64,000 nucleotides of DNA from Candidatus Kerfeldbacteria bacterium (GTDB lineage Bacteria; Patescibacteriota; Patescibacteriia; UBA9570; XYC2-FULL-38-9): NCBI GenBank assembly GCA_016182555.1, contig JACPGJ010000007.1, forward strand, positions 192,053-256,052, read 5' to 3'. Both the position numbers and the translations under genes were made by a program. How positions within the stretch are numbered: position 1 is the first letter of the stretch; every line of letters begins with the position of its first letter. A model generated the notes under the pieces. That model was not told the origin of the DNA and made no database searches. It saw only the letters and a program-made list of their open reading frames with translations. Positions 24,337-40,778 of the stretch are shown in pieces.

Positions 24337-24412
24337 GGTGGCCATGGTGAAACGGTTATCACGACAGTTTGTGGTACTGTCATTACGGGTTCAATTCCCG
24401 TTGGCCACCCCA
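24337..24412 (+). tRNA. tRNA-His (anticodon GTG) with encoded G-1 and CCA
   Basis: G-1 is opposite discriminator C73. Perfect acceptor GTGGCCA/TGGCCAC, D arm GTGA/TCAC, anticodon stem ACAGT/ACTGT with loop TTGTGGT, T arm ACGGG-TTCAATT-CCCGT. Confidence 0.9.
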
Positions 24413-25957: not shown

Positions 25958-26147
25958 ATTGTAAATTGATAAAATGACGAAACACATTTAGTCATTTTAA
26001 TACTATATAATACTTAATTTATAGTCAAATTTAGATATTTATTTGTTATTTTCGTCATTTTTGACGAAAAATTTATACATTATTTTTTCTATTATATACT
26101 TGTACGTTCCTCGGAATGAATTTGAGGAACAAGGAGGTAAATCAAAA

Positions 26148-26402
26148 ATGAAAAAGCACCTTTTATTCCTTCTGTTGTTGGTGCTCACTGCCTGTCCTAC
26201 CAAAACTTCTGATTTCAATAGGAGCAAGGAGGTAAAACCACCCACAACAGCAGGAGAATCAAGTCAATGGGTGAGGGAGCTATCCTATTCGTCTGCTCCG
26301 CTCATTGGCGATGCCTCTCGTTTAAAAACAGATACCAATAAATGCTACCTCGTAGTGAGAGGTGGACATGGAATCGCACTTGTAGAGACGCCTTGTCCTT
26401 AA
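26148..26402 (+). CDS. small lipoprotein (cargo gene of module 1)
   Basis: GGAGG RBS 8 nt upstream. MKKHLLFLLLLVLTAC lipobox signal peptide. Confidence 0.55.
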   Translation: MKKHLLFLLLLVLTACPTKTSDFNRSKEVKPPTTAGESSQWVRELSYSSAPLIGDASRLKTDTNKCYLVVRGGHGIALVETPCP

Positions 26403-26411
26403 TTAAAGGAA

Positions 26412-26480
26412 AACGGTTCGGCAGTACCAGCTGCGTCGAGAGCTTGGAGGAGCTTTCCGCACAAAACTGCTATTTTTTAT
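26412..26480 (+). repeat. conserved ~70-nt palindromic terminator-like element, copy 1
   Basis: AACGGTTCGGCAGTACCAGCTGCGTCGAGAGCTTGGAGGAGCTTTCCGCACAAAACTGCTATTTTTTATTT. A long imperfect hairpin (GGCAGT...ACTGCY) followed by a T-run, directly 3' of the + gene. Confidence 0.8.
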
Positions 26481-27280
26481 TTCAAATCTTTTTGAGTAAT
26501 TTCTTCTGAAACACTATCCCACATCATTTCAAACCACGCAAGGAATGTTCTATAAATAGTTGGGTTGTCAATCACCACAGTATTCAGATGTTGCGTGTAA
26601 TCAATAATAGCTACATGCCCTTCCCAAATGAGGGTATCAGTGTCCAGCTTCATATTTTCTGGCAACCATTTCACATGATGATATTCATGCAAACCCGCAT
26701 TTCGAAGATACTGCTTCCCCGCAGCATTGGGAATCATCATTCCTTTACGTAATACTTTCTGTATTTTTAACTCAGCAAAATTATCTTCAACAGCGGCATG
26801 CGGAAATGTTTTCGTCACTACTGCTAAATCACCAATTAAGTAAAGTGTTTTTTGTGCGTTGATAATTTCCCGATGCACTGCCAGAATTCCTTTTTTGCCT
26901 TCGAAAAAACGCACACCTGCTTTGTAGGCTGTACCAAATTTCATTTGATTAAACACATCCGCAACAGAACGAAATGCATTTTGTTGTTCCGTGAGTGCTC
27001 GTTTCTCTTCTTCCAAAATATCAATGACATGTTCAATCTGCTCTACTTGAAAATAGAGTTTATCATTTTCTGTAATTGAACTCACAAATCCTCGATGTTG
27101 TAATGATTGCAACAAATCATAAATTGATGAACGTGGAATATCACTTGCCTGTTTTGTTATTTCAGATGCTGTAGCTTTATTGAGCTGAATCAATACAAAC
27201 AGCACGGCAATCTCCCGTTGATCAAGCCCATACGCTTCAAGAATACGTTGTATTTCTTTTTGTCGAATATCCGTCGACAT
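26477..27280 (-). CDS. TrmB-like transcriptional regulator, island paralog 2
   Basis: HTH LDQREIAVLFVLIQLNKATASEITKQASDIPRSSIYDLLQSLQHRGFV. C-terminal block conserved with the paralogs. Confidence 0.7.
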   Translation of the reverse strand: MSTDIRQKEIQRILEAYGLDQREIAVLFVLIQLNKATASEITKQASDIPRSSIYDLLQSLQHRGFVSSITENDKLYFQVEQIEHVIDILEEEKRALTEQQNAFRSVADVFNQMKFGTAYKAGVRFFEGKKGILAVHREIINAQKTLYLIGDLAVVTKTFPHAAVEDNFAELKIQKVLRKGMMIPNAAGKQYLRNAGLHEYHHVKWLPENMKLDTDTLIWEGHVAIIDYTQHLNTVVIDNPTIYRTFLAWFEMMWDSVSEEITQKDLK

Positions 27281-27377
27281 ATATATTGATTATTATTTAA
27301 ATTCATTTTATATTTATTTGTTCTTTTTGTCAAAATAGTGCGACAAAAAGAATAGACTTTAACTCATGAGGTTTGTT

Positions 27378-28001
27378 ATGCGGATTTTGGTAATCGACGA
27401 TAACCAACATCATCTCAACTCAGCTAAAGAATTGTTAAAAGAGCACAAAGTCACTCTCTGTTCTACTGCAGACGAAGCAATTGAACTGCTTGAACCGCAG
27501 TATGATGATGTCATCTTTCATCGGCTTTGGTCAGAGAAAGGATGGGAAGAAGCTTCACAAGTGGCTCGCCTTCCCTACTGGGATGTAGTGCTCAGTGATC
27601 TCCTCATGCCTGCCCCAAAACGAAACCTGAGTTACTTTGGTGAAAAATTCATTGGGCAGGAGATGCCAGTAGGTTGGGCATTCGTGTTACGAGCTACACT
27701 CGAGGGTGCAAAATTTGCAGCCGTTGTGACAGCAACAAACCATCACAACCATCCAGCCTCAGCACTGCTCGATCCTCTTGGATCGGCATATTGGGAAGAT
27801 AATAGGGAAAATGCACCGAAGTTTACAATTAACGGTGCCACAGTTGGTTTCTATCATGCACCAATGATAGGTGTAGACACCGTTCCCTGTTCACACTGTA
27901 ATGTAACAGGGCGCACAGATAAAATCTGTTCTTTTTGTGAGGGCACAAAAAAGGAACAAGGAAAAAATTGGGCTCTGGTGCTTAAGGCGCTAACCTCTTG
28001 A
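27378..28001 (+). CDS. receiver-like domain protein with C-terminal DnaJ-type CxxCxGxG zinc finger (cargo, family member 1)
   Basis: MRILVIDDN...DVVLSDLLMP receiver-like N-terminus. Conserved HHNHPAS motif. C-terminal CSHCNVTG...CSFCEGTK. GAGG RBS before the second ATG. Confidence 0.6.
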   Translation: MRILVIDDNQHHLNSAKELLKEHKVTLCSTADEAIELLEPQYDDVIFHRLWSEKGWEEASQVARLPYWDVVLSDLLMPAPKRNLSYFGEKFIGQEMPVGWAFVLRATLEGAKFAAVVTATNHHNHPASALLDPLGSAYWEDNRENAPKFTINGATVGFYHAPMIGVDTVPCSHCNVTGRTDKICSFCEGTKKEQGKNWALVLKALTS

Positions 28002-28011
28002 AAAATATACA

Positions 28012-28080
28012 AACGGTTTGGCAGTACCTGCTGCGTTGAGAGCTTGGGAGAAGCTTTCCGCACAAAACTGTCTTTTTTAT
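28012..28080 (+). repeat. conserved ~70-nt palindromic terminator-like element, copy 2
   Basis: AAACGGTTTGGCAGTACCTGCTGCGTTGAGAGCTTGGGAGAAGCTTTCCGCACAAAACTGTCTTTTTTATTT. Confidence 0.8.
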
Positions 28081-28835
28081 TTCTCCCACATGTTCTTGAA
28101 CAACTCCCGCAAATTTCGTGCAAGAACAGCATCATGAATTTCCACCATATAATGCGGACGATCACGTGTTTTTACCATAATAATATAATCACCAATTACC
28201 CACAGACTCGCATCAAATTCACCTTTTCGTGTTGGTTTAACTAAGCGTTGCACATACTTCTCTCGCATAGCTCGCTCAATGTTTTTGTCGTTCGTTAAAA
28301 AACGGACTTTCAAATCTTTTGGCCCTTGCTGCCAAGTCCAGTCTATCCATCGGCCATAGTGCTCGGTAAATGAACTATCATGAAACCCCCACCATGTATT
28401 ATCTATTGCTTCTCCGCTCTCTTTCCAATGTTCATATTGTTTATGCAAATAGGTCGTCAGATCAGATTCTTCAATAACCTTGATTTTTGGTACTGAATAT
28501 TCTACCGCAGACATGATTGTTGTAATATTGCGGGAGAGAATTTGAGCTGCCTCTTTTTTCTTTTTGATTTGCTGCTCTTCTTTTGTTACCAAATCCAGTA
28601 ATGCTTTTGGATTACCCGCTACCAGATAGCGCACTTTGTTCCCAATATCTTCAGTAATCAAACCAAGTTGAATAAGCTTTTTCCCAATACTATACACCGT
28701 TGTTCTATTGATTCCCGTGAGCTTGGCCACCCGTGCTGGCGATATTTTTCCTGTCTGTTGCACAGCCAAAAAAACAGCTTGTTCTTGCTCATTAAAACCT
28801 AATGTACTAAAGAGTTCTTTTTCCATATATGGCAT
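28077..28835 (-). CDS. TrmB-like transcriptional regulator, island paralog 3
   Basis: HTH LGFNEQEQAVFLAVQQTGKISPARVAKLTGINRTTVYSIGKKLIQLGLI. C-terminal block conserved. Confidence 0.7.
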   Translation of the reverse strand: MPYMEKELFSTLGFNEQEQAVFLAVQQTGKISPARVAKLTGINRTTVYSIGKKLIQLGLITEDIGNKVRYLVAGNPKALLDLVTKEEQQIKKKKEAAQILSRNITTIMSAVEYSVPKIKVIEESDLTTYLHKQYEHWKESGEAIDNTWWGFHDSSFTEHYGRWIDWTWQQGPKDLKVRFLTNDKNIERAMREKYVQRLVKPTRKGEFDASLWVIGDYIIMVKTRDRPHYMVEIHDAVLARNLRELFKNMWEK

Positions 28836-29002
28836 ATTGCTACAAAATTAACATGTTGTTGGTATATCGTCAACGAATTTTATATTATTAGCTAAAATTA
28901 GCATAGAATAATGATTTATTATCTTTGACACTATAGCTTCTTTATTTTACGCTGTATAGTTCTGTTCTGGATAGCAAGCTTGAAAACTGTATGGGAGGAG
29001 AT

Positions 29003-29392
29003 ATGAAAATTGGTATTCTGACGTGCAATCACAATTGGTGGAGCAGTGATACCGCTAGCCTATTAAGCGGAATGCTGCCCTATTTAGCACCTCGAGAATT
29101 AGGAGGAGTTGAGAGCTATATTGAACTTCCTTGGAATGAAGTAATTCCAAAAGACGTCGATCTTGTCTTTTGTACTCTGTGCGAAACCTGCACAGAAGAG
29201 CCAGAGAATCTCAAAGCTCTAAAGCAACGAGGAGGGTATATAGCTATTTTTCATGAGTACAACGATTTACGTGCTCAGGTGATAGTAGAGCTGCATGACT
29301 ATCACACCTTCCGCATGCTGAAAGAAAAGTATGGTGTTACTAATCTCGAATTCCTTTATAGCGAATGGAGATTTTTAACAGCCAGAAAATAA
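29003..29392 (+). CDS. hypothetical protein (cargo of module 3)
   Basis: GGGAGGAG RBS before MKIGILTCNHNWW. No recognizable domain. Confidence 0.4.
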   Translation: MKIGILTCNHNWWSSDTASLLSGMLPYLAPRELGGVESYIELPWNEVIPKDVDLVFCTLCETCTEEPENLKALKQRGGYIAIFHEYNDLRAQVIVELHDYHTFRMLKEKYGVTNLEFLYSEWRFLTARK

Positions 29393-29423
29393 GGAGGAAT
29401 AATGTTCTATATCCGAGCAGGAC

Positions 29424-29470
29424 CAACGGTTTGGCAGCACCGATCAAAAGCTGCCTTTTTGTTTATTTTT
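29424..29470 (+). repeat. short variant of the conserved element (same 5' box CAACGGTTTGGCAG, simple hairpin plus T-run)
   Basis: CAACGGTTTGGCAGCACCGATCAAAAGCTGCCTTTTTGTTTATTTTTT. Confidence 0.65.
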
Positions 29471-30224
29471 TAAGTGTTTTCCAAAGAAGCGTATATATCA
29501 ACTTCTGCAATTGGACAAACTCCCGTGATTCTATCAGGACAGCCATTTTTTCTTTCCATGAAGCAATGAGCACTTTATCATTATAGATATTCACTTCTGG
29601 CGAGAATGTATGCTCTGGATCATCTAAAATAACCGATTCACGAAGTTCTGATTTATCATGCTTTGCGCGTTCAACTGATTTTTTATTTTTTGGCATAATA
29701 GCCCGAATTGATACCTTTGCTGCTGTACGACGCTTGTAATAGTCTGGGAAAAAATGTGGTAGTCCCTCGTGCATAGTTTCCACATTGGCATAGGCTAAAA
29801 TCGTTTCTTTAGCAGTAAGTGTATCTTCATATGCTTCTCGCATTCCTTTTTCTCCTTCATAAAATGTTACTTTTGGTTTTGTACTTTGCGGATGAATCAA
29901 CGAGGAAAGTTCTGGCAGAATTTGTTTTACCAGCTCCTGTTGCGTATTGATTTGCTTATTCATTTCCTCCCTTTCTCGTTCCAGATACTGAACTAAACGT
30001 TTAGGATCACCCGCATGAAAATAGATTTTCCCTTTCTTTTTGAATTTACTAATGAGTCCTTTCTTCATCAGACCTTCTAACACATCATAACAACTCGTAC
30101 GGTTAATATTCGACTTTTTACTAATATCGGTAGGAGTCGCTGAATCCAGCTCTAATAACGCTAAATAGACTGCTGTTTCTTTATCAGAGAACCCTAATTG
30201 CTCAAAAATGGTTGTGGATATCAT
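29463..30224 (-). CDS. TrmB-like transcriptional regulator, island paralog 4
   Basis: HTH LGFSDKETAVYLALLELDSATPTDISKKSNINRTSCYDVLEGLMKKGLI. C-terminal KPKVTFYEG...NIYNDKVLIASW...LIESREFVQL. Confidence 0.7.
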   Translation of the reverse strand: MISTTIFEQLGFSDKETAVYLALLELDSATPTDISKKSNINRTSCYDVLEGLMKKGLISKFKKKGKIYFHAGDPKRLVQYLEREREEMNKQINTQQELVKQILPELSSLIHPQSTKPKVTFYEGEKGMREAYEDTLTAKETILAYANVETMHEGLPHFFPDYYKRRTAAKVSIRAIMPKNKKSVERAKHDKSELRESVILDDPEHTFSPEVNIYNDKVLIASWKEKMAVLIESREFVQLQKLIYTLLWKTLKK

Positions 30225-30360
30225 ATATTTTGTGGAAAATATTTCGACAATATTAGTATATCAAATAAAGGATAAAATAGCAATATTTTTATACTTTGTC
30301 GGTTATAGTGTGTAAGTATTTTTTATTCTATGAGATACTACTGTGTTCTCGAAAGAGAGC

Positions 30361-30906
30361 ATGCACATTGAAACCATATCCATTCAGTTAAGGCACGGCT
30401 TCGCGATGTTGCGGAGTGGTCGTGAGCTACACTGGCTGAATGGGTATTACAAAAAACGTTGGGGTAGTATGCGGCCAACAGTAGCGCTTGAGTTTAATGG
30501 TACCAACAAGTGGGTGGGGACATTTAGTTGGCATCATAGTTTAGATAAGGTTGAAGCGAGTTTTAAAGTGGTTGTGACAGACTGGGGCAGTGAGTCTACC
30601 TGTTATAGTTTTGAGATAGGGTCTCAAAAGTGGGACTTATCACCTAAAGAACTGTGGCAGTATGGCAATGTTGGTAAGGATGATTATCAACAAGCACAGC
30701 AGAGGATGCTATACTTGATGTATAGTCAAACCAGGACTGCACTTCAGGCAGCAACATCTATGCCTGATTTTGACCTACAAGACCAGATCAAAAGAGGAGA
30801 TGCTAACCTGGAGGTGTTTAACAACAAAGTTTCCCTGAGGATGTTTGATAACGTTTGGGAAAGTGCGGTGCATTATACTATTCGTAAGCTGTATATCCCC
30901 TCCTAG
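30361..30906 (+). CDS. hypothetical protein (cargo of module 4), possibly frameshifted into 30845-31120
   Basis: No domain recognized. A second overlapping ORF (30845-31120) ends exactly at the downstream terminator hairpin. Confidence 0.3.
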   Translation: MHIETISIQLRHGFAMLRSGRELHWLNGYYKKRWGSMRPTVALEFNGTNKWVGTFSWHHSLDKVEASFKVVVTDWGSESTCYSFEIGSQKWDLSPKELWQYGNVGKDDYQQAQQRMLYLMYSQTRTALQAATSMPDFDLQDQIKRGDANLEVFNNKVSLRMFDNVWESAVHYTIRKLYIPS

Positions 30907-31130
30907 AAATTCGTGCCGCCTGTCACGTTCCCTCCTACAGGCATATCCCAGTGCCTACCTTTTAAAAGATGGATACTGGAATATCTATAGTGCTAAAGCT
31001 GGTTCTACTATCAACTGCTTTATCAAATTCATATTCACCTTCCAGTCAGTTTGGAGGTTCCTGAATACGTCCACTAAGGGACCCATGATGGGAAGAAGCG
31101 AGGCGAAAGCCTCGTTTTGATTTGTATTTA

Positions 31131-31167
31131 GAGAAGCTTTGCAAACAAAACTGCTTTTTTGTTATTT
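31131..31167 (+). repeat. partial copy (3' half) of the conserved element, preceded by an independent hairpin at 31100-31119
   Basis: GAGAAGCTTTGCAAACAAAACTGCTTTTTTGTTATTT matches the 3' half AGCTTTCCGCACAAAACTGC-Tn. Confidence 0.55.
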
Positions 31168-31906
31168 ACACATTCCATGCTACATAAAACAAACTTTTTA
31201 ACATTTCATGTATTCCTTTGCTTTCAATAATCACTCCAAAAAAATCTTCTTGGTATGAGAGAAAAGCTACTTTATGTGCAAATATTTTCACATCTCCGCT
31301 ATATAATGCGTGTTGATTTTTGATAATTTTGATTTCTCTGAGTTCATTTTTTGCAGAACTTGCCCACTCACCTGCTGTCTGATCATCATGTGTAATAATT
31401 TTGTTGACCACTTTTTTCCGTATACGTTCTTTAACATATTTGTCGAGGATTTCTTTTGGAATGTATTCATAAAAATTTTGCACTCCGATATACGTCAGAA
31501 TAGTATCGCCTGGAGAAACGGATGCAATAATATCATGATAAAACTTTTTCATCCCTATTGCTCCTTCATATAACAGAATGTTTGGTTTTGAACGTAAAAA
31601 ATTTTGATATTTTGCTAACTCTGGAATCATCTGGCGTACCGCTTCTATTTTTTCTTCTATCGCTTGCTCAAGATTACGAACATCATCAACAAAGTAATAT
31701 TTTCTCCCCTTCTGCTTTGTCACCGAAATAAATCCATTTCGCTGCATCTCAGGCAGAATATTATATAACGTTGTTCTTTTCAGATTACAGCGCTTTGCTA
31801 AATCAGTTGCCGTTATTTCTCCTGCCTCTAACAACGTGAGGTAAATGAGCGCTTCTTTATCAGAGAAACCCATATTCTCTATTAAGTGTTGCTTCTGTAC
31901 TCGCAT
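31166..31906 (-). CDS. TrmB-like transcriptional regulator, island paralog 5
   Basis: HTH MGFSDKEALIYLTLLEAGEITATDLAKRCNLKRTTLYNILPEMQRNGFI. C-terminal KPNILLYEG...VKIFAHKVAFLSY...IIESKGIHEM. Confidence 0.7.
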   Translation of the reverse strand: MRVQKQHLIENMGFSDKEALIYLTLLEAGEITATDLAKRCNLKRTTLYNILPEMQRNGFISVTKQKGRKYYFVDDVRNLEQAIEEKIEAVRQMIPELAKYQNFLRSKPNILLYEGAIGMKKFYHDIIASVSPGDTILTYIGVQNFYEYIPKEILDKYVKERIRKKVVNKIITHDDQTAGEWASSAKNELREIKIIKNQHALYSGDVKIFAHKVAFLSYQEDFFGVIIESKGIHEMLKSLFYVAWNV

Positions 31907-32099
31907 ATATTTATACTGTGTCTACATTTTTAGACAATATTCTAGTTACTATTTTTTACAAAAAATGCCTTAATTTACAGCCATAATAGTTATTCTTTCC
32001 ACTAGCATAATATAGAATAACAAAAAAATCAAACGCTATTTTTATTTTCATATAACGTGTAAATCGGCAATCACGCCTAGCCCATATCTGGAGGACATC

Positions 32100-32324
32100 A
32101 TGGACGGTCTGCTTTGGCTTATTGCTAATTTATTCCAAGCTCATCAGAAGGTTTCGGAAAGAACCGCGCGCATTGCTTCACTAGAAACTGCTTTATTGAC
32201 TGCTTCATCTGACGAAGAGAAAGAAGCAATCACAAAGCGAATTAATGAAATTCGTGCCGAGACCATGCACCTGGATGCTGGTCGCAAAGCAGTGCTCAGA
32301 GCAAATGGAAACCCTGAGAAGTGA
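32100..32324 (+). CDS. small coiled-coil protein (cargo of module 5)
   Basis: 74-aa helical ORF correctly placed between the divergent promoter and a copy of the element. Confidence 0.35.
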   Translation: MDGLLWLIANLFQAHQKVSERTARIASLETALLTASSDEEKEAITKRINEIRAETMHLDAGRKAVLRANGNPEK

Positions 32325-32366
32325 TTACCTGCTGAGGTACTTGCGTTCAATGTACCTAGACAGTAT

Positions 32367-32438
32367 CAATGGTTTGGCAGTACCAGTTGCGTTGAGAGCT
32401 TGGAGGAGCTTTCCGCACAAAACTGCCTTTTTTTATTT
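32367..32438 (+). repeat. conserved ~70-nt palindromic terminator-like element, copy 5
   Basis: CAATGGTTTGGCAGTACCAGTTGCGTTGAGAGCTTGGAGGAGCTTTCCGCACAAAACTGCCTTTTTTTATTT. Confidence 0.8.
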
Positions 32439-33225
32439 ACTGCCACCCACCTTCAACAGGTTTGGCAAAATGATGAATAGACTCAAACAGCGCACGTAGA
32501 ATGCCAACAATACCCGCATGCTCCAACGTAAAAAGTAGTTTAACTTCTGGAATAAAAAACGCAGCTTTGTTTCCATATATCATCACAAGGTGCTCAAGTG
32601 GCAATGCGGCTTCTGGCAATGTGCGTAAATCCCACAAGCGTGCTCGCATCAAGCGTTTATTTTCTTCGGCAAGGCCTTTTCCTGGCAGAGCCATAGATTC
32701 TGTGGTGAACACTGCACGCGTTAAAATGCGCCTGTCCACCATGCGTCCGAAAAATACCGCCCACTCTTTACTGGAGAGCAATTTCAATTCTCCCTTCACA
32801 GCTGTTTTTCCTTCCAGCACAAGAAATTCAGACCCCCGTGGCATTGTACTCATTTCGTCGTAAATACGTTTCATGCCAGCCGCTGATTCAATAACCTCAA
32901 TAAGCGGCTTTTGTGTTTCAGCGCGTTGCAACGATTCCAATTCGGGCACAACGGATTTAAAATCAACCGTCCAGCGTTCAAACAAATCGGCTAAATCTTT
33001 TGGCGGTAGAGCAACATATTCCGTTCTGCGCCCAACTCGTGTTTCCTTCACCAGCCCGCGTTCAATCAAATGGGTGAGATGGAAAGAAACTGCGGCTCTA
33101 TTTTTCTTTTGTGCATACGCTAATTCTGTAATTTTGCTTGAACCCTGCTTTAACAACAGTACATACAACTCTGCCTGTTGTGGCGTAAGAGAGAAGTTTT
33201 CGAGCAGTTCGATGGGTTTTGCCAT
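32437..33225 (-). CDS. TrmB-like transcriptional regulator, island paralog 6
   Basis: HTH FSLTPQQAELYVLLLKQGSSKITELAYAQKKNRAAVSFHLTHLIERGLV. More divergent C-terminal domain. Confidence 0.6.
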   Translation of the reverse strand: MAKPIELLENFSLTPQQAELYVLLLKQGSSKITELAYAQKKNRAAVSFHLTHLIERGLVKETRVGRRTEYVALPPKDLADLFERWTVDFKSVVPELESLQRAETQKPLIEVIESAAGMKRIYDEMSTMPRGSEFLVLEGKTAVKGELKLLSSKEWAVFFGRMVDRRILTRAVFTTESMALPGKGLAEENKRLMRARLWDLRTLPEAALPLEHLVMIYGNKAAFFIPEVKLLFTLEHAGIVGILRALFESIHHFAKPVEGGWQ

Positions 33226-33413
33226 ATATTTTTCTATAAATGTCTACGATTATTTACATCCAATTATACGCTATTTTATTAGTATAGTCAAACATTTTGT
33301 ATGTTTAACGTCTATAACCGTTGACGTTGAGCGGTTTTTCAGGTATTCTGTTCTGTTGATTGAGAATAGTTCTCATGAAACACGCACCTTTACAACCGAT
33401 AAAGGAAAAGATC

Positions 33414-34031
33414 ATGAAAGTTTTAGTAATCGACGACAACGAAATCAACCGAAAATCTGCGCGGGATACTCTTGAGGGGCACGACCTCACGATCGCTGAT
33501 TCAATGAGTGCTGGTGGACTTGCAATGTTCCACGCGAAAAAAAATTTGCCATTCGAAGCGGTTCTGACGGATATGAATATGCCGAGGGAGGAGGAGGGAG
33601 AGCTTGCCGCGTATGGATTCATCATTGCTCTGATGGCAGTGCAATACGGGGCAAAGTACATTGCCATGGTTACAAGGAAAGGCGGCCACGATGATAAGAA
33701 AGATGCAATGGCGGAAGCTCTTTCCTCTCTTGGTCCGTGGCACTACACAAACAAACAGCGTTTAAATATTAACGGAGCAAGGGTTATGTTTGTGTACGCA
33801 CCTACAACCAGTGAAGCGACTGGAGAGGGGTCGTGTCCTTCCTGCAGTGGCTCTGGAACCTGCAAGTATTGCGATGGCACGGGAATTTTTGTGGATGAGG
33901 ACAGGAGGCAGGACAACTGCCATGTGTGTCACAATAGTCAAGGCGGTTGCCACCGTTGCAAAGGAGAAGGCAAGGTGAAAATATATGGGAAGGACTGGGG
34001 TAGGGTTCTGTCCGACCTTATTGCTCCATAA
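33414..34031 (+). CDS. receiver-like domain protein with a fourfold DnaJ-type CxxCxGxG zinc finger (cargo, family member 2)
   Basis: AAAGGAAAAG RBS. MKVLVIDDNEINR...AVLTDMNMP receiver-like region. C-terminal CPSCSGSGTCKYCDGTG...CHVCHNSQGGCHRCKGEG. Confidence 0.6.
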   Translation: MKVLVIDDNEINRKSARDTLEGHDLTIADSMSAGGLAMFHAKKNLPFEAVLTDMNMPREEEGELAAYGFIIALMAVQYGAKYIAMVTRKGGHDDKKDAMAEALSSLGPWHYTNKQRLNINGARVMFVYAPTTSEATGEGSCPSCSGSGTCKYCDGTGIFVDEDRRQDNCHVCHNSQGGCHRCKGEGKVKIYGKDWGRVLSDLIAP

Positions 34032-34045
34032 GTAAAAAGGAGAAC

Positions 34046-34120
34046 CAACGGTTTGGCAGTATCCGTGCGTCGAGAGTTGTAGCACACAACTTTCCGCATA
34101 AAAACTGCCTCTTTTATTTT
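34046..34120 (+). repeat. conserved palindromic element, copy 6 (divergent stem sequence, same boxes)
   Basis: CAACGGTTTGGCAGTATCCGTGCGTCGAGAGTTGTAGCACACAACTTTCCGCATAAAAACTGCCTCTTTTATTTT. Confidence 0.7.
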
Positions 34121-34878
34121 CTCGCACTATTCCAAGCTAATTTCCAAATCATTTTCATGGTATTAGCAATGAGTTGGCTTTCAATGGTGACTGCAAACAC
34201 TTCATGGGTGTGATATGAAATCATAGACACAACATTGTCATAGCACATAATTTCACATTCAAAATTGTAGGTTGATGCTGGGAGTAATCGCGATTCACGA
34301 AATTCTTGTTTATCTCTACTATGAAAATCTACTGCTAATTCATCATCAGGAATCACAAGCTTGGCTAGTTTATTATTTTTTTTACGAGCAGGAATATACT
34401 CTTTCTGCCAAAAATGAATCAATGCTTTATCACGTACTTGTAATGATTCTATTCCTACAAATGCTTTCAGTTCATTTTCTTTCGCATTCAGTGAAGCACG
34501 ATATACCTCTTTTACTCCTTCAATTCCTTCATAATATTTCAACACTGGTTTTATCGCATCATGATTCATTCGTGTGACTAACTCTGGGAGCAGTGTATCA
34601 AACTGCTTCAATTTTTCTTTGAAGAGCTGCTTGAGCGTTGAAGGATGTTCCGCAACATACACTGTCTGCTTTCCTTTTTTTGATTGCGTGACAAATCGTT
34701 TTTCAATGAGATTATCGATCGTGTGATAGAGAGTTGTACGATTGATTTTTGTTTTACTGGAAAGCTGTAAAATAGACGATGAGCCAAGTTCAAGCAAGGC
34801 AAGATACAGTGCCGCTTCTTTATCTGTTAATCCATATTGTTGCAATGCTTCTTGAATCATGTTGACTATTTTCGACAA
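34114..34878 (-). CDS. TrmB-like transcriptional regulator, island paralog 7
   Basis: HTH YGLTDKEAALYLALLELGSSSILQLSSKTKINRTTLYHTIDNLIEKRFV. C-terminal block conserved. Confidence 0.7.
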   Translation of the reverse strand: MSKIVNMIQEALQQYGLTDKEAALYLALLELGSSSILQLSSKTKINRTTLYHTIDNLIEKRFVTQSKKGKQTVYVAEHPSTLKQLFKEKLKQFDTLLPELVTRMNHDAIKPVLKYYEGIEGVKEVYRASLNAKENELKAFVGIESLQVRDKALIHFWQKEYIPARKKNNKLAKLVIPDDELAVDFHSRDKQEFRESRLLPASTYNFECEIMCYDNVVSMISYHTHEVFAVTIESQLIANTMKMIWKLAWNSARK

Positions 34879-35032
34879 ATATTAAAACTAAATTTAAGCT
34901 AATATAAATAACTTTATCCATAAATAAGAGTAAAATATATTATATCTTGTTTATAAAAATAGTCAAATATTTGTATGAATGGTAGTGTTGTTTGTTCCTC
35001 AATAACGAGGGGCACAACAGGAAGGATCTTTT

Positions 35033-35488
35033 ATGCTTAGGCTTGTCGAAATGTTCAAAATTGAAGTTGATTCCACTATCAATTTTGAACGGGCACATTT
35101 TTTTCACAATCAAAAAGCGTTTCTTCAGTGCCTACCAGACGTGGAGAAAAGATTTCCACTCAACGACGACCGGGGAAAGGTGGAAATATTCATCTATGAG
35201 GTAACGGCTGAAGAGATGACGAATGATCAACTCAACGAGGAATTGTTTCGAAACCACTGGCGGATGGCTGGAAGCAGAATCGGCCTTTCGCTTATGTCTG
35301 ATCAACAGATCAGATGGCGAATGCGAGAAAAATACCCCACGGTATTTTTTACTGAAACATGGCATGACGGAAATGTGCCAAGACGGCTCGCTTTTTGTGA
35401 AGGGATGCATAAGTTTGGCACCATGCTGGGAATAATCCCAATGGCGCCAATCAGCAAAGGAGACAAATTTCTTGTTGTAAAGGTGTAG
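35033..35488 (+). CDS. hypothetical protein (cargo of module 7)
   Basis: 151-aa ORF followed immediately by a copy of the element. No recognizable domain. Confidence 0.4.
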   Translation: MLRLVEMFKIEVDSTINFERAHFFHNQKAFLQCLPDVEKRFPLNDDRGKVEIFIYEVTAEEMTNDQLNEELFRNHWRMAGSRIGLSLMSDQQIRWRMREKYPTVFFTETWHDGNVPRRLAFCEGMHKFGTMLGIIPMAPISKGDKFLVVKV

Positions 35489-35494
35489 GATCAT

Positions 35495-35562
35495 CAATTT
35501 AGCAGTACCTGTTACGTTGAAAGCTTGGAGGAGCTTTCTGCAACGGTACTGCTTTTTTTATT
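35495..35562 (+). repeat. conserved palindromic element, copy 7 (compensatory changes keep the long stem)
   Basis: CAATTTAGCAGTACCTGTTACGTTGAAAGCTTGGAGGAGCTTTCTGCAACGGTACTGCTTTTTTTATTA. Confidence 0.75.
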
Positions 35563-35743
35563 ACTTAAAAAATAGTAATAGCTTATAATTGCTCCTAATT
35601 TAGGTTGAACTATACATTAAAAGTTTGGTTCATAAAACACATTCATCGATTCAACTCTTGATTTTCTCGCTTCAAAAAAAACAGGCTCGTCAGATATAAT
35701 ATCCTCGGAGCCTTTATTGGATCGGCTATTTGAGCATATCCGA

Positions 35744-36193
35744 TCATACGTATGCGCGTAACAGAATTCCAACTTCCTTCTCTATCTTTTCCTTGAAAGT
35801 AGTATCAAGGTGAAGGTACTGTTGCCGACAAGCTCGTATCGTACCCTTGATATCACCAAGTACGTACACTGTAATCGTTTCATCTGTGGGAGGAGCACAA
35901 CCAATAAGGGAAGATACTCTGCTCAGATTTTCGATACCAATTTCAATTTGGTTTTGAGCACAGATACCAAATATACTGATGATAAGCTCGATAGCCTTAC
36001 GAAATGACTTGGGCTTATGATGATGGTGAGCCAAAAAGGCTGCATCAACCAAGTTTTCCCACTGCACAATAGTAGGAGGATGTTTGTCATATTTCTTTGC
36101 ATGCTCATCAACCATGTGAATAAGCTCTCGCAAAGTGGTCTCTGGATCGATCCCTTTGAAACTCAGTAGCTCTTGGTCGATATTCAGGCTCAT
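35744..36193 (-). CDS. hypothetical protein (partner of the plus-strand TrmB paralog 8)
   Basis: 149-aa ORF divergent from 36369-37133. No domain recognized. Confidence 0.4.
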   Translation of the reverse strand: MSLNIDQELLSFKGIDPETTLRELIHMVDEHAKKYDKHPPTIVQWENLVDAAFLAHHHHKPKSFRKAIELIISIFGICAQNQIEIGIENLSRVSSLIGCAPPTDETITVYVLGDIKGTIRACRQQYLHLDTTFKEKIEKEVGILLRAYV

Positions 36194-36368
36194 CTTTCTC
36201 TCCTTCTAACTACGTTACACTGTTTGATTACTCAAGGCACATGCTTATCCTTCCATTTTTCTATATGTATTTAAATATACTAAAAATATATTTTGCCTAT
36301 ACTTAGTGTAAAAATTGACATAATTAAATTCTGTTGACAAAAATAATGACAGTAGATAGTGTAATAAT

Positions 36369-37133
36369 ATGTCTATAGAAAAAATGTTAGAACAATTGGG
36401 ATTAGAGCAAAAGCAAGCACTCGTCTACCTTACATGCCTCCAACTTGGTAAAGATAGTGCGTTTCATATTGCTGAAAAATGTGGCCTGAAACGTTCAACC
36501 GTATACATCAAACTAAATGAACTCAATATAAAAGGATTAGTACAGATTACAAAAACATCAAAGGCAAAATTGTATCAGGCTGTTTCTCCAAAACGATTAT
36601 TACAACAAATAGACTTTAGAAAAAAACAGATTGAAGAATCACTCCCCCTGTTGCTTTCTCTGTATAAAGATGAGAGTCAAAAACCGAATATTGAAATATT
36701 TGAAGGGAAAAATGCACTTGAGCAGATGAATAAAGAAATATTCCATTATATCCAGCAGAATCCCACCGAAGAAATCCTTTCGTTTGGAAGAATTGATTAT
36801 CTTGAACGTTATTATGAAAAAACATTTAGCAAATGGGTAAAGCAAGTACAATACAAACAATTTCGAACTCGCCAGATATTTAATAAAGGTGCTACTGAAA
36901 CAGCTCTTGTTAAAACATTACAAAAAAATGCTTCCGCTCAACACGATGTACGATTTGTTGATGAAGAATTATTTTCCAATGACAATGTTATTTGTGGAGA
37001 TACCATGTATATTTTCTCTATTGTAGAAAATAACCTATTTGTAATTGTGATCCATAATCAAGAAATTATACAGACCTATAAAGCTTTCTTTGATTTAGCG
37101 TGGAAAGGTATTAAAAAAACCCCACTCTCCTAA
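36369..37133 (+). CDS. TrmB-like transcriptional regulator, island paralog 8 (inverted orientation)
   Basis: HTH LGLEQKQALVYLTCLQLGKDSAFHIAEKCGLKRSTVYIKLNELNIKGLV. C-terminal KPNIEIFEG...FVIVIHNQEI. Confidence 0.65.
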   Translation: MSIEKMLEQLGLEQKQALVYLTCLQLGKDSAFHIAEKCGLKRSTVYIKLNELNIKGLVQITKTSKAKLYQAVSPKRLLQQIDFRKKQIEESLPLLLSLYKDESQKPNIEIFEGKNALEQMNKEIFHYIQQNPTEEILSFGRIDYLERYYEKTFSKWVKQVQYKQFRTRQIFNKGATETALVKTLQKNASAQHDVRFVDEELFSNDNVICGDTMYIFSIVENNLFVIVIHNQEIIQTYKAFFDLAWKGIKKTPLS

Positions 37134-37180
37134 AAGGAATAGCTATGTATATCGTCTTAACTTGGGTAAAACCAAAATTT

Positions 37181-37954
37181 TTACTTTACTTTATTCGGTA
37201 ATGCATTCCAGACAAGGTTAAATAACGACGTCATTGAATCTGCTAACGCACTATCTTGAATAATAATGCCTGTCGGATGTTGGGTATTCCAGCTAATCAA
37301 GGCAATTTTATTTTTATAGACGTCAATTTCAATTTTGAAGGGATACTTCTGCGCATTAAATAATTTCATCGTGCGATACTCTTCTTTCTTTTTTGCGTAC
37401 TGTTTAGAAATCGCATTATCTGGAGCAATCCAGCGAATAGGAATGTGCTCTTTCATGCGTTTTGCAATAAATTGCTTTTCATGATGAGGAAGAATAGCCA
37501 GCATATCTTCTCCTGAGGAGATAGTAAGAATTTCTTTATCTGGATTTTTATCGAGCTTCATCGTTAGTAAAATATCACGAAATATATTTTCTACTCCCTC
37601 TTTTCCCTCAAAGAATTGCATACGCGTTTGTTGATCACCTGTCATAGCCATATTGAGTAATGGCAGAATTTGACGAAGATCAGTGAGTAAATCTTCAAAT
37701 CGAAATACAATAGACTCTGGTGATTCGGCAGTATACACTTTTCGCTTGCCTTCCAGATGATGAGTAATGAATCCTTTTTTTTCTAACTGCTCTACCAAAA
37801 TATTGACCGTACTGCGCTTTATTTTCGTACTCTCAGTAATTTGAGAAATGAATAAACCGTACTTGCTTTGAAGCAATGCAAAATAGATGCTCACTTCAAC
37901 ATCTTTTAGGCCTAATTGTCGTAATAATGAAGCAACGTCAGGAATGAGTACCAT
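37181..37954 (-). CDS. TrmB-like transcriptional regulator, island paralog 9
   Basis: HTH LGLKDVEVSIYFALLQSKYGLFISQITESTKIKRSTVNILVEQLEKKGFI. C-terminal KIEIDVYKNKIALISW...IIQDSALADSM. Confidence 0.7.
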   Translation of the reverse strand: MVLIPDVASLLRQLGLKDVEVSIYFALLQSKYGLFISQITESTKIKRSTVNILVEQLEKKGFITHHLEGKRKVYTAESPESIVFRFEDLLTDLRQILPLLNMAMTGDQQTRMQFFEGKEGVENIFRDILLTMKLDKNPDKEILTISSGEDMLAILPHHEKQFIAKRMKEHIPIRWIAPDNAISKQYAKKKEEYRTMKLFNAQKYPFKIEIDVYKNKIALISWNTQHPTGIIIQDSALADSMTSLFNLVWNALPNKVK

Positions 37955-38058
37955 AGAAATTTAACAAAAAAATTAACATTTTGATACTATTTTAACAATA
38001 ATCTATTATTTTGTCTAGCACCTTGAAAACAATCTTAGCAAAAGAAAAGGAGGACACT

Positions 38059-38457
38059 ATGAATATCAAGCATGTTCTTGTTCTTGAGGATGATAAGGAC
38101 TTAATCGATCTCTACAAGAAATCTCTATGGGAAATGCTCCTTTCCGATAGTATTGTTCCTACTATGGCCTGTACCGTACATTCAGCCATATCTTGTGCCC
38201 AAGTGAGGGTCGATGTTGAACAACCATTTCATCTTGCCATTCTTGATTATTCCATTCGGAATGATCCGCAGAATGGAAACGATGCCGCCAGAATCATCAA
38301 GGAAATATCACCTACAACACGCATTGTTGGTAATACGGGTGGTAACCCACTGGTTTTCGATCGACGCTTCGTTGATAAGGTGATGCGAAAAAAAATCCGC
38401 AACTGGATGGAAATGATGCTTGCTATCGATGACCATAACCTTGGAGGAATACCATGA
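38059..38457 (+). CDS. receiver-like single-domain protein (cargo of module 9, first gene)
   Basis: GGAGG RBS. MNIKHVLVLEDDKDLIDLYKK...LAILDYSIR. Translationally coupled (ATGA overlap) to the next gene. Confidence 0.5.
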   Translation: MNIKHVLVLEDDKDLIDLYKKSLWEMLLSDSIVPTMACTVHSAISCAQVRVDVEQPFHLAILDYSIRNDPQNGNDAARIIKEISPTTRIVGNTGGNPLVFDRRFVDKVMRKKIRNWMEMMLAIDDHNLGGIP

Positions 38458-38999
38458 AGATTTTGATTATGGATGACAATCCACTTCACCGTGCTGCTGC
38501 ACAAGCTCAATTGAATGATCATGAGCTGACTGTAGTGAGTACATACGACGATGCTCAGGCATTGATTGGGAAAAAGCACGACTTCGATGTTGTGCTTGTC
38601 GACCTGCTCATGCCACCAAGCAAAAAAAATCTCAATTCCCAAGGAAAGAGGTTCACAAGAAAGGAGATGCCAGTTGGGATCTTTCTGGCATTGTTGGCCG
38701 CACGATTCGGTGCCAAGTATGTTGCCGTGGTGACAGATGCTGGACATCATGACCATCCAGCCTCAACCTGTTTCGATGCATTCAACCCTTTTGATCGGCA
38801 CAACGTGCATAATCCAAATGCACCACAACCGTTCAAGCTCAATGATGCAAAGGTCATTCTGTGCAACAACTGCATCGACTACTTCTACGGTGATGATCTC
38901 TCTCGGCAAATGGCATATGGCCAGTACAACACTGAAAAGGGAAAAGTTATTGCGGTAAAAAACTGGCGTTTGGTTCTGGAGGCACTTTTGCAAAGTTGA
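38454..38999 (+). CDS. receiver-like domain protein of the HHDHPAS family with a C-terminal CxxC (family member 3)
   Basis: MKILIMDDNPLHR...DVVLVDLLMPPSKKNL...GHHDHPAS...CNNC. Clear homology to 27378-28001 across the receiver-like region. Confidence 0.6.
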   Translation: MKILIMDDNPLHRAAAQAQLNDHELTVVSTYDDAQALIGKKHDFDVVLVDLLMPPSKKNLNSQGKRFTRKEMPVGIFLALLAARFGAKYVAVVTDAGHHDHPASTCFDAFNPFDRHNVHNPNAPQPFKLNDAKVILCNNCIDYFYGDDLSRQMAYGQYNTEKGKVIAVKNWRLVLEALLQS

Positions 39000-39011
39000 A
39001 TAAGCAGGATG

Positions 39012-39082
39012 CTTGGTTTGGCAGTACCAGTTGCGTTGAGAGCTAGAGGAAGCTTTCCGCACAAAACTGCTTTTTTTATTTT
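39012..39082 (+). repeat. conserved ~70-nt palindromic terminator-like element, copy 8
   Basis: CTTGGTTTGGCAGTACCAGTTGCGTTGAGAGCTAGAGGAAGCTTTCCGCACAAAACTGCTTTTTTTATTTT. Confidence 0.8.
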
Positions 39083-39195
39083 GTGTAAACCCTATCAATT
39101 ATCTTATAACAACTATTATCTAAATTAAGGGCTAAAATAAGCTAATATTAGTAACTTTTACTCCTTTCTTATAATTTCTTATAACTTTAATACTC

Positions 39196-40623
39196 CTAAA
39201 AATTTGCTTCGTATGAAGCACCTCGTGTTTCTCCTAGCTGATGAATTAAGCCCATCTTTTGCATCTTGGCTAAATCATAATTAATGGTTGGACGTGGAGT
39301 ATCGGTGAGAATCTGTTCACATTCCTTTGCAGTGATTCTTTTATTTTCAATCAAATAATTCCAAATAGCTACTTGTCGCTCATTTAAACTACTCAGTTTC
39401 TCACCCATCAATATCACCTTAAAACTATTTACGGTATTTTTAAATATTGGAGGGATAAGATTCCACTGTTTCATTGTATTAAACACAATATCAATTCCTC
39501 TACCATATTCTTCCAGATAATCCAATTCTTTCAGCCGTGCAGCAATCATCTCATTTCTACTTGCTTGGGCATCTTTGATATTCTCTACGGTCACTCCAGG
39601 TGGCAAAGAGCCTGGATTAAACACTTCGATACGATCTTCAAATATATTTACCTGGGTATAGGTTTCAGTAATTCTGTAATCACGATGAATAATAGCATTT
39701 GCAACGATTTCACGAATAGCTTTTTCAGGATATTCATATTTTTCTACTCTCTTTGTGCCAATAATTTCAGCACTCCGTTTAATATTCCGTAATACAAACT
39801 TCTGTATTGCATCAATTTGTGTATCAAGCGTGCCATCAATATCCATTTTATCAATGATATCTGTTGCTACATTCGATCCTTTGTAGCGAACACATCGCAC
39901 AATATACCGACTAAAGTTTTGTTTGTTTTGTGGACGGTCTTTAGCAAAAATAAGAAATCCTCCAACAGTAGGCAATTGCTCACCATCAAATGTATCTACA
40001 ATTCCCAAATTCTTCATGAGTTCAAAATTCACATCTTCAATAACAATGTCACGATGAGTACGTTCACTGCTGCGTTGCACTAATCCAAGTATTTTTTCTT
40101 TCGACAAACCATCTAGTGTTGTGTCTTCTGCTTTTGTAGTATCGAATTTTAATTTTTTTGAGTTATCGATCAAGTGTCGCATCTCCTCTTCTGTCATTGT
40201 TCGATCCGTATTTCCATCTCGAATACAGGCACCTGAAGGCAATCCTTTTGGCTTGTAATAGCATGGCTTAAATTGATCAGGGCATTCGGGAATATAGACT
40301 GCTAATAATGTTTTTCCATCTCGTTCAATAATGTGATATGCAGGGCGAATAGTAAAACTCATTTCATTATTCACAAGGTCACCAATCTTTTCTTGTAGCT
40401 GGGCAATATCTGTTATTCCAACAACTTCCATTATCTTATCCTCTTTATTATCAACCACACCAAAAACCATCAACCCACCACCTGGCTTATGCGAAAAAGA
40501 AGAAACAGTTCTCCACGTCGTTGATGGACGACCTCCTCGTGCATCTTTAAATTCAACACTGATCGTTTCTGAAGAACGATTGAACGCTTCATCTATTAAT
40601 TTTTCTATCTCTGATATAGTCAT
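39196..40623 (-). CDS. putative ATP-dependent DNA-binding regulator (AlbA_2/Schlafen-like N-terminal domain, HATPase_c_4-like domain, C-terminal wHTH; RecG-C-terminal-like family)
   Basis: The architecture matches this family. N-terminal part: SEIEKLIDEAFNRSSETISVEFKDARG. Middle: REIVANAIIHRDY. C-terminal HTH: ERQVAIWNYLIENKRITAKECEQIL. Start set at MTISEIEKL. Confidence 0.6.
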   Translation of the reverse strand: MTISEIEKLIDEAFNRSSETISVEFKDARGGRPSTTWRTVSSFSHKPGGGLMVFGVVDNKEDKIMEVVGITDIAQLQEKIGDLVNNEMSFTIRPAYHIIERDGKTLLAVYIPECPDQFKPCYYKPKGLPSGACIRDGNTDRTMTEEEMRHLIDNSKKLKFDTTKAEDTTLDGLSKEKILGLVQRSSERTHRDIVIEDVNFELMKNLGIVDTFDGEQLPTVGGFLIFAKDRPQNKQNFSRYIVRCVRYKGSNVATDIIDKMDIDGTLDTQIDAIQKFVLRNIKRSAEIIGTKRVEKYEYPEKAIREIVANAIIHRDYRITETYTQVNIFEDRIEVFNPGSLPPGVTVENIKDAQASRNEMIAARLKELDYLEEYGRGIDIVFNTMKQWNLIPPIFKNTVNSFKVILMGEKLSSLNERQVAIWNYLIENKRITAKECEQILTDTPRPTINYDLAKMQKMGLIHQLGETRGASYEANF

Positions 40624-40778
40624 AAAATCTTTTCTATTTGGCTGCAGTATACAAAAATAACCCCTTCTCCACAAGGGTAAGAAATAGTGAGCTGGAGGGT
40701 GGACTACTATATATCAAGTGATAGGCCGTATAAGTTATTCGCTTGCTGTAATCCAGTTCTAACTTCGTCTACTATGCG

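Follow-up and report, generated by a model that had tools for sequence, protein, structure and literature searches.

A repeated ~72-nt terminator-like hairpin behind the cargo genes of a TrmB-like regulator array in a Candidatus Kerfeldbacteria bacterium

The stretch of DNA analysed here, called the window throughout, comprises 64,000 nucleotides (nt) of contig JACPGJ010000007.1 (positions 192,053 to 256,052, forward strand) from a Candidatus Kerfeldbacteria bacterium (assembly GCA_016182555.1). Between 25.2 and 38.0 kb it carries an array of nine paralogous genes for TrmB/TrmBL2-like regulators of ~250 amino acids (AA), recognised by hidden Markov model (HMM) matches, together with the genes paired with them, which we term cargo, and a repeated hairpin-forming element of ~72 nt at the cargo 3' ends, which is the subject of this work. 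PF01978 was found in the regulator representatives that were scanned, and these matched TrmBL2 structures over their full length. Eight of the regulator genes lie on the minus strand, each divergent from a cargo gene on the plus strand, and the ninth belongs to an inverted unit (all assigned by HMM):

25217-25987, minus strand: TrmB-like regulator
26477-27280, minus strand: TrmB-like regulator
28077-28835, minus strand: TrmB-like regulator
29463-30224, minus strand: TrmB-like regulator
31166-31906, minus strand: TrmB-like regulator
32437-33225, minus strand: TrmB-like regulator
34114-34878, minus strand: TrmB-like regulator
37181-37954, minus strand: TrmB-like regulator
36369-37133, plus strand: ninth TrmB-like regulator, in an inverted unit with cargo 35744-36193 on the minus strand and no element

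The regulators share only 17-33% AA identity with one another, and each divergent intergenic region contains its own palindromic operator-like site, different for each unit. Most of the cargo genes are mutually unrelated; they encode a DUF2188 protein, a lipoprotein-like peptide, three paralogous receiver-like proteins with Cys-rich tails and several orphans, and for their function searches of Pfam, NCBIfam, PADLOC and PHROGs gave only weak receiver-domain similarity. With regulators so diverged and operator-like sites private to each unit, the element is therefore the sole DNA common to the units. A role of the element as a regulator-binding site was considered and rejected, as the promoter palindromes differ unit by unit and none resembles it.

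The repeat family was confirmed by a search for direct repeats and by a covariance model (R1) that was built on the six long copies of the window and run over both of its strands with filters off. The window holds six full copies, two short variants and one 3' half, all on the plus strand between 25181 and 39083, and zero further copies were found outside that span. The full copies scored 78-98 bits (E values 1e-20 to 1e-26). The copies are as follows, with R1 scores in brackets:

25181-25224, plus strand: copy c0, short variant, composed of GGTTTAGGTAGT, a loop of 10 nt, ACTGCC and a T-run (23.1 bits, E 7e-4, and fold); starts ~9-10 nt past the DUF2188 stop, its tail covering the stop codon of regulator 25217-25987
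26410-26483, plus strand: copy c1, full, main type (92.1 bits; minimum free energy -21.5 kcal/mol); starts 7 nt past the stop of lipoprotein-like cargo 26148-26402, its tail carrying the TAA of regulator 26477-27280
28010-28084, plus strand: copy c2, full, main type (93.5 bits); starts 8 nt past the stop of receiver-like cargo 27366-28001, its tail covering the stop of regulator 28077-28835
29423-29467, plus strand: copy c3, short variant (34.5 bits, E 3e-7), consisting of the 5' box, the outer stem GGCAGC/GCTGCC (with a compensated pair) and a T-run, the inner hairpin being deleted; starts 30 nt after cargo 28991-29392
31129-31166, plus strand: copy c4, 3'-half remnant (weak, 9.5 bits; nhmmer match to model positions 41-74, E 0.006), consisting of AGAGAAGCTTTGCAAACAAAACTGC and then a T-run, aligned to the 3' arm and also matched in the direct-repeat family, with its 5' arm swapped for an unrelated terminator hairpin at 31095-31118; abuts the stop of regulator 31166-31906
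32366-32439, plus strand: copy c5, full, nearest to the consensus (97.9 bits); starts 41 nt after cargo 32100-32324, its tail covering the stop of regulator 32437-33225
34045-34121, plus strand: copy c6, full, "c6 type" (77.8 bits), with a compensated apical stem, GAGAGTTGT/ACAACTTTC; starts 13 nt past receiver-like cargo 33435-34031, its tail covering the stop of regulator 34114-34878
35491-35565, plus strand: copy c7, full, "ACGGTA type" (79.3 bits; minimum free energy -27.1 kcal/mol, z -4.9), a nearly perfect hairpin; starts 2 nt after cargo 35033-35488, with no TrmB gene downstream
39010-39083, plus strand: copy c8, full, last of the array (90.6 bits); starts 10 nt past two-gene cargo 38059-38457 and 38454-38999, with a Schlafen/AlbA_2 gene (Pfam) next downstream

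An earlier note on this DNA had listed eight copies and described them as always lying directly 3' of cargo. Its positions agreed with the R1 scan within 1-2 nt and all eight loci were recovered, the half copy at 31131 only weakly (9.5 bits), but the short variant at 25181-25224 had been overlooked. The placement held for the eight hairpin-bearing copies, which start 2-41 nt past the cargo stop, and failed for the 3' half, which lies ~222-224 nt from its cargo stop. Searched alone with up to 2 mismatches, the 13-mer 5' box gave 6 matches against 2.0 expected, which is barely above chance, since 4 of 100 shuffles also reached 6.

Relatives were reached through homologues of two of the regulators and comprised contigs of two related species, Ga0208373_1001288 (G2) and Ga0208977_1000335 (G3), and two more distant ones; individual loci among the homologues are cited below by handles such as L092. 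The 90% protein cluster of the G3 regulator has a member named Candidatus Kerfeldbacteria at NCBI, and all relatives share the backbone synteny of ComM, PNPase, NYN, Xer-type recombinase and CCA-adding enzyme genes. Two full copies of the element were found with R1 in G2 and two in G3, each just 3' of cargo in a TrmB-divergent unit and in one orientation relative to the backbone, and ~68 kb of backbone DNA from the three genomes contained 0 copies.

At seven units the next convergent regulator gene ends within the element's tail (T6-7 ATTT), which includes that gene's stop codon and, as a rule, its final lysine codon as well. Copies c7 and c8 and all four copies in the relatives are without a downstream TrmB gene, which indicates that the element goes with the cargo and not with the downstream regulator. 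R1 found no element at the convergent junction between two regulators (37133/37181), the inverted unit ends in an unrelated terminator (35682-35713), and other genes of the window have ordinary terminators unrelated to the element, for example at 5797-5831.

The full copies adopt a common fold, which runs from the outside to the apex through a 6-bp stem (GGCAGU/ACUGCC), an asymmetric internal loop, GCG/CGC, a 2-nt bulge and a 7-8-bp apical stem closed by a loop of 3-7 nt, with a U-run downstream of the stem; the hairpin part occupies 52 nt. As plus-strand RNA this is an 18-bp interrupted hairpin of -19 to -30 kcal/mol over the full copies. All ten full copies have at least six T within 9 nt past the stem on the plus strand only, whereas the minus strand past the stem reads AAACCGUU and has no U-tract. 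The plus strand also folded 2-6 kcal/mol better than the minus strand in eight of the ten, because its G.U pairs (18 cells across the ten copies, with one apical pair G.U in eight of them) would become A.C mismatches on the other strand. Strand asymmetry and U-tract together point to an element that acts as RNA where the cargo mRNA ends.

For the analysis of covariation we aligned the ten full copies from the three genomes, and also a set of nine. In the ten-copy set 97.8% of paired cells could pair, compared with 39-56% when partners were slid by 1-3 columns, both sides had changed at 3 pairs, and 0 of 500 shuffles reached the observed score or percentage paired. The compensatory changes were C-G to U-A and U.G to G-C in the apical stem of c6, G-C to A-U in c7, which also has an extended stem, and U-A to C-G in the short c3. 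Ten of the 18 pairs were invariant among the ten copies, and the covariation is real but sparse, stemming from few events. Mean pairwise identity over eight full copies was 0.88-0.91 in the stems versus 0.52-0.58 in the loops overall (5' box 0.58, apical loop 0.53), and the unpaired 5' internal loop, ACC(A/U)G(U/C)U, reached 0.77. The apical loop contains GGA (as GGAGG or GAGGA) in eight of the ten copies; the c6 subtype is without it.

These results bear on several points of the earlier note. The long imperfect hairpin followed by a T-run was borne out by folding, and the compensatory substitutions that it had seen in copies 6 and 7 were confirmed and are matched by those of the short c3. Its argument for selection on structure gains from the pairing figures of the nine- and ten-copy sets taken together (97-98% paired, 3-4 double-changed pairs, 0-1 of 500 shuffles). 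In contrast, the 5' box and the loop, which it had called invariant, proved to be the least conserved parts, and its suggestion of a bidirectional terminator must be abandoned, since the U-tract is found on the plus strand only and the minus strand is for most copies the poorer fold.

Between the three species the backbone has diverged to 70-81% identity in proteins, 65-74% in coding DNA and 17-39% at four-fold sites, which are thus saturated, whereas the element is 83-93% identical; the earlier suspicion of more conservation than a plain terminator needs is upheld by this comparison. For the main type c5 and G3a were 90% identical, for the ACGGTA type c7 and G2b were 83% identical, and for the c6 type c6 and G3b were 93% identical, with a remnant of the latter type also present in G2. 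All three subtypes recur in different species at non-orthologous units, and the genes that flank these cross-species pairs of elements are not orthologous. The copies form no groups by genome, and incompatibility was seen for 73 of 136 pairs of informative sites. The element changes several-fold more slowly than the neutral sites of its own units and is thus under purifying selection. Judged by sequence comparison, it is more conserved than the adjoining housekeeping genes, and it is either far younger or far better maintained than the surrounding regulator paralogs.

The units themselves turn over rapidly. Three of the window's nine regulators have an orthologue in G2 and one of the nine in G3, and the orthologous regulators are accompanied by different cargo and promoter DNA, with homology ending at the ends of the open reading frames (ORFs). 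Genes of shared units have a four-fold identity of 0.38-0.68 versus 0.17-0.39 for the backbone, and this lower divergence suggests exchange of units between lineages after speciation. Lone 3' halves of the element occur with a changed upstream partner at at least five places (c4; L086 995-1016 and 7424-7472; L092 6978-7015 and 8485-8517); the left edges of the remnants are scattered over ~20 nt, and several remnants (c4 and two in L003) form a new small hairpin with upstream sequence. Cargo 38454-38999 is present in the window and absent in a relative, and this insertion or deletion ends exactly at the 5' box. Among these genes, in a pattern that implies exchange after the lineages split, the regulator present in all three species (window 34114-34878, L092 10001-10744, L089 8140-8880) has a four-fold identity of 0.68 between G2 and G3, and the units shared by the window and G2 (37181 with its cargo, and 26477) have values of 0.46-0.66 compared with 0.29-0.35 for the backbone.

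No copy was present in eighty loci (1.2 Mb) that encode TrmB relatives in Patescibacteria and DPANN genomes, and we take the element to belong to a narrow lineage instead of accompanying the TrmB family in general; these more distant loci usually have 1-3 such regulators per 20 kb, compared with nine here. A degenerate 27-nt pattern had 0 matches in 185,579 representative genomes, 0 in viral contigs and two on one metagenome contig. An 18-mer of the 3' arm matched one viral contig inside a coding region, which was judged to be chance. With Rfam 15 only four tRNAs reached the gathering thresholds, and nothing credible appeared at E values up to 5 over 24900-39300. In the other multi-TrmB loci examined, no repeat of this kind was seen at cargo 3' ends, and other genomes of the radiation carry repeated palindromes of their own. 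Locus L096, the regulator of which is 63% identical, has its own hairpin repeat at cargo 3' ends (1392-1435, 2848-2891 and 3680-3723), with an inner stem TCAAGTT/AACTTGG, an outer stem that varies with compensation, and then T6-7. It was rejected as a homologue, having no sequence similarity to the element, and treated as an analogue; by this analogy, shared families of terminators may be a general trait of such arrays.

We consider the element to be, more likely than not, a shared intrinsic (factor-independent) terminator and 3'-end hairpin of the cargo genes. This reading follows from its position, its hairpin and U-tract, its strand asymmetry and the stronger conservation of stems than of loops, and it fits the short variants and remnants, which retain the part nearest to the U-tract. 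Tested against what defines such terminators, the element showed a stable hairpin with a U-tract and a location past a same-strand stop in the window, G2 and G3 alike. Each unit would thus be laid out as a TrmB-like regulator with its own operator and promoter, the cargo and then the element. RNA polymerase would transcribe the cargo from the divergent intergenic region and reach the element 2-41 nt past the stop, where the nascent plus-strand RNA would fold into the 18-bp interrupted hairpin and the run of at least six U would release the transcript. Termination at this point would prevent antisense read-through from the cargo into the next convergent regulator gene, so that each cargo would answer to its own regulator alone, and the hairpin should also shield the 3' end of the cargo mRNA. 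It is termination and insulation that we infer here, beyond the anatomy, position, strand asymmetry, array specificity and purifying selection observed above.

Several features sit poorly with a terminator and nothing more. The hairpin is long and interrupted, and a simple terminator scan missed the element while a looser scan called it. Ten of 18 pairs are invariant though a terminator needs just a stable stem, the unpaired 5' internal loop is conserved, and identity across species reaches 93% at non-orthologous units. Two units manage with a stem of 6-7 bp, so most of the element must be dispensable for simple termination, and the minus strand, lacking a U-tract, leaves the regulator genes' own termination unexplained. 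To account for the invariant pairs, the conserved internal loop and the 93% identity, either recurrent recombination or a reader of the specific sequence is needed. An additional sequence-specific use beyond termination therefore probably exists on this comparative evidence. There are two candidates for it, recognition of the basal helix and internal loop by a binding factor, and service as a tract for homology or recombination where the cargo slot ends.

The second of these candidates leads to an unlikely, though quite conceivable, alternative, in which the element is a cassette-boundary recombination site or a portable homology tract for inserting, excising and shuffling cargo or units, with the nearby Xer-type recombinase, another enzyme, or RecA on ~70-nt direct repeats as the agent and termination as a second role. 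Such a site would account for one copy per unit in uniform orientation in three genomes, for sharp homology edges such as that of the 38454-38999 cargo at the 5' box, and for the fast turnover of units with differing cargo behind orthologous regulators. It would equally suit the recurrence of one subtype (93%) at non-orthologous units of different species, the inter-genome homology that breaks inside the element and leaves 3'-half remnants, the low divergence of shared units with the exchange it suggests, and the incompatible site pairs, which reflect mosaicism or homoplasy. In four related genomes, moreover, 0.5-7 kb separate the array from a gene for a Xer-type recombinase, and the element resembles attC in its conserved base and variable apex. 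However, this proximity might be plain synteny, and the attC core sites (RYYYAAC/GTTRRRY) are absent, the stem base being GGCAGT/ACTGCC with no 3' GTT. The nearest tyrosine recombinase (19857-20828) is XerA/XerD-like and without the integron-integrase insertion; its best scores were to XerD, XerC and XerA, TIGR02249 gave 137 bits against a cutoff of 265, and its match to the IntI4 structure was limited to C-terminal residues 244-308. The remnant breakpoints are spread over ~20 nt and not at one position, an apical loop of 3-7 nt is contrary to a double-stranded core with a fixed spacer, some rearrangements break away from the element, at the 5' or 3' end of a regulator ORF, and conversion tracts into the flanks were not found. 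Nor were excised circles or alternative junctions seen in the only other assembly (Logan SRR12113422), in which gene order was unchanged and contigs just break at the repeats. Two specific identities were rejected: that of an integron attC, for want of core sites and with a Xer-like recombinase, even though the array does consist of single-orientation cassettes with one site each and a content varying between relatives; and that of a dif-like site formed by the apical inverted arms, the spacer being 3-7 nt and the inner ends having no ATAA/TTAT. A bolder form of the idea, which we regard as distinctly unlikely, would make the element the site of an integron-like, IntI-independent gene-capture system in Kerfeldbacteria-like Patescibacteria, a hot spot beside a Xer-type recombinase that collects self-regulated TrmB-plus-cargo cassettes, with the folded element acting as crossover site within and between species and as cassette terminator. 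Xer-type genes are located at 19857-20828 in the window and at L092 12509-13468, L089 17016-17975 and L099 7957-8889, beside NYN and CCA-adding-enzyme genes, and their proximity to the array may be plain synteny or a functional link.

The other two explanations seem to us less probable still. An improbable one is that of a 3' untranslated region (UTR) hairpin read by a trans-acting factor, or processed into a multi-copy small RNA, such that the cargo mRNAs would belong to one post-transcriptional circuit; the reader could be a CsrA-like protein on the apical GGA, a protein on the internal loop, or a lineage-specific RNA-binding protein or RNase. Selection on primary sequence beyond pairing (5' internal loop 0.77, 10 of 18 pairs invariant), a cross-species identity higher than that of protein-coding DNA, the strand asymmetry, which indicates RNA, the apical GGA of most full copies, and the presence of one sequence at the end of many unrelated mRNAs, as a common reader would require, are all in keeping with it. 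Yet the c6 subtype has been kept in three species without the loop GGA, conservation is lowest in the loop and 5' box, the inner hairpin is missing altogether from the short variants, no candidate binding protein was identified, no target complementary to the 5' box or loop occurs within the window, and no Rfam family matched; a search of the window for a role of the anti-Shine-Dalgarno-like minus-strand loop likewise found none. Very improbable, in our view, is a selfish repeat of the repetitive extragenic palindromic (REP) or miniature inverted-repeat transposable element (MITE) type that spread by transposition to gene 3' ends and was tolerated or co-opted as a terminator. The copies are indeed far more alike than the genes near them (regulators 17-33%, most cargo unrelated), they have sharp edges and palindromic arms, and their subtypes are common to several species at non-orthologous sites; other genomes of the radiation have repeated palindromes of their own, and the 63%-related lineage has a different T-run hairpin repeat at like sites. 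But the ten full copies and all remnants share one orientation, with no inverted pairs, no visible target-site duplication and none in the ~68 kb of backbone, so that a generic REP or MITE, which the earlier note had offered, is disfavoured. Among ~50 window ORFs scanned with Pfam there was no Y1 (RAYT) or other transposase, the 2-41 nt spacing and the tail that supplies the next gene's stop are too regular for random insertion, and conservation across species implies selection on the side of the host.

Several observations concern the cargo genes and the surroundings of the array. The DUF2188 frame just 5' of c0 (24953-25171, E 4e-20) has no ATG start, differs in frame from the listed ORF 24978-25163 and has no TrmB partner. 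The receiver-like cargo family (window 27366-28001, 33435-34031 and 38454-38999; L011 19049-19351; L096 2911-3615) is paired with TrmB-like regulators in all three loci and is marked by a degenerate receiver-like N-terminus, a conserved GAK(Y/F)xAxVT...HHxHPAS motif and a CxxC-rich tail. Some cargo genes encode tiny hydrophobic peptides, such as the 42-AA MCKMMQLVFGKHAGKPWVPAVAGGTGTVVCWMVLMGIRCLLF of G3 (L089 5578-5706, minus strand), which are reminiscent of small membrane toxins. The whole 16.4-kb array is bracketed by two direct repeats of 259 nt that are 95% identical:

24404-24662, strand not assigned: left copy of the 259-nt direct repeat (repeat search), starting in the last 9 nt of tRNA-His 24338-24412
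40776-41034, strand not assigned: right copy of the 259-nt direct repeat, overlapping the 3' end of the AEP-TOTE primase-like gene 41003-42145 (minus strand)

This bracketing looks like an island insertion or a segmental duplication; no integrase lies inside the bracketed region. The left copy has a 19-nt tandem duplication (GTATTCGGTCTGCTTGGCA twice, ~24645-24682). The AEP-TOTE conflict-system primase-like gene (PF22548, E 9e-86) adjoins an AbiEi/AbiEii pair (region 41003-43587), in which the AbiEii toxin gene consists of two overlapping ORFs (42155-42538 and 42417-42851), probably as a pseudogene produced by a frameshift. In the relatives L086, L092 and L089, AbiE pairs and Fic, SNF2 and AAA_14/DUF4143 genes are interspersed among the regulator-cargo units, and such defence-type genes place the array in a hot spot resembling a defence island. 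At 23765-23805, between a tRNA-Arg pair and an HNH/zinc-finger ORF, GGTGGCTGTAGTTCAGTTGGTTAGAGCACTGGTTTGTG resembles the 5' half of a tRNA, was not called by ARAGORN or Rfam, and may be a tRNA remnant of an integration event. Further downstream, an autoinducer-synthase-like GNAT gene (52073-52702; PF00765, E 5e-12) lies beside histidine kinases with a seven-transmembrane N-terminal region (49700-56096), a combination unexpected for a small genome of the Patescibacteria type. Literature searches on the TOTE system and on arrays of TrmB genes in the Candidate Phyla Radiation yielded nothing of use.

To our knowledge, structured non-coding elements and mechanisms of gene flux are poorly characterised in the Candidate Phyla Radiation. 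The ~72-nt element exceeds its housekeeping neighbours in conservation and yet is restricted to that portion of the locus which changes most. This is the array, where every orphan cargo comes with a TrmB-like regulator of its own and where even orthologous regulators are paired with different cargo. Should it be a terminator only, it still offers a clean case of insulation between closely spaced convergent genes, and the covariance model is useful for annotating such genomes; if it also serves in recombination or protein binding, it would define a novel means by which bacteria with small genomes build up and trade accessory genes under regulation. The family is undescribed, although palindromic, repeated, terminator-like elements are already known as a kind; it is unusual in its confinement to one hypervariable array, in marking where the variable cargo slot next to each private regulator ends distally, and in being conserved beyond the housekeeping genes nearby.

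Among known systems, the element resembles intrinsic terminators in having a stable hairpin and then a U-tract a few nt past the stop, between convergent genes of a compact genome. It differs from them in forming one homologous family over at least nine units, conserved at 83-93% despite saturated neutral sites, and in its 52-nt hairpin, which is longer than needed, contains a conserved internal loop and is unidirectional. Multi-copy families of 3'-UTR hairpins and small RNAs likewise place a terminator-containing hairpin at the end of several mRNAs, mostly with a purine-rich loop such as the GGA seen here, whereas one conserved subtype of our element has no loop motif. With the REP and bacterial interspersed mosaic elements (BIMEs) of enterobacteria and pseudomonads it shares the nature of extragenic imperfect palindromes at gene 3' ends, able to terminate transcription or stabilise mRNA, with a family-specific sequence conserved among related species. 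REPs, however, are 20-40 nt long, present in hundreds of copies genome-wide, often as inverted pairs, and have a cognate Y1 transposase, whereas the element is ~72 nt long, has a single orientation and was seen only in one array within the contigs examined; unlike a MITE, it has no flanking duplication, keeps to one orientation and lies at a set distance from stop codons.

As in the Vibrio cholerae repeats (VCR) and other attC sites of sedentary chromosomal integrons, an imperfect palindrome, conserved at its base, variable at its apex and near-uniform in sequence within its lineage, stands in a single orientation directly 3' of variable genes, the content differs between close relatives, and a tyrosine recombinase is encoded nearby. 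In contrast to these systems, the element has no RYYYAAC/GTTRRRY cores, an IntI-type integrase and an attI site are absent, and, in a departure from most cassettes, each unit brings its own regulator and promoter; of the element's two strands it is the mRNA strand, ending in a U-tract, that folds better, and a role in recombination is putative. The pdif modules of Acinetobacter plasmids are similar in being small and self-contained, often with their own regulators or toxin-antitoxin pairs, in being bounded by short repeats and in having a Xer recombinase as the presumed agent. They are, however, delimited by 28-bp XerC-spacer-XerD sites in alternating inverted order, whereas the element has no dif-like arms, a variable loop and a uniform orientation.

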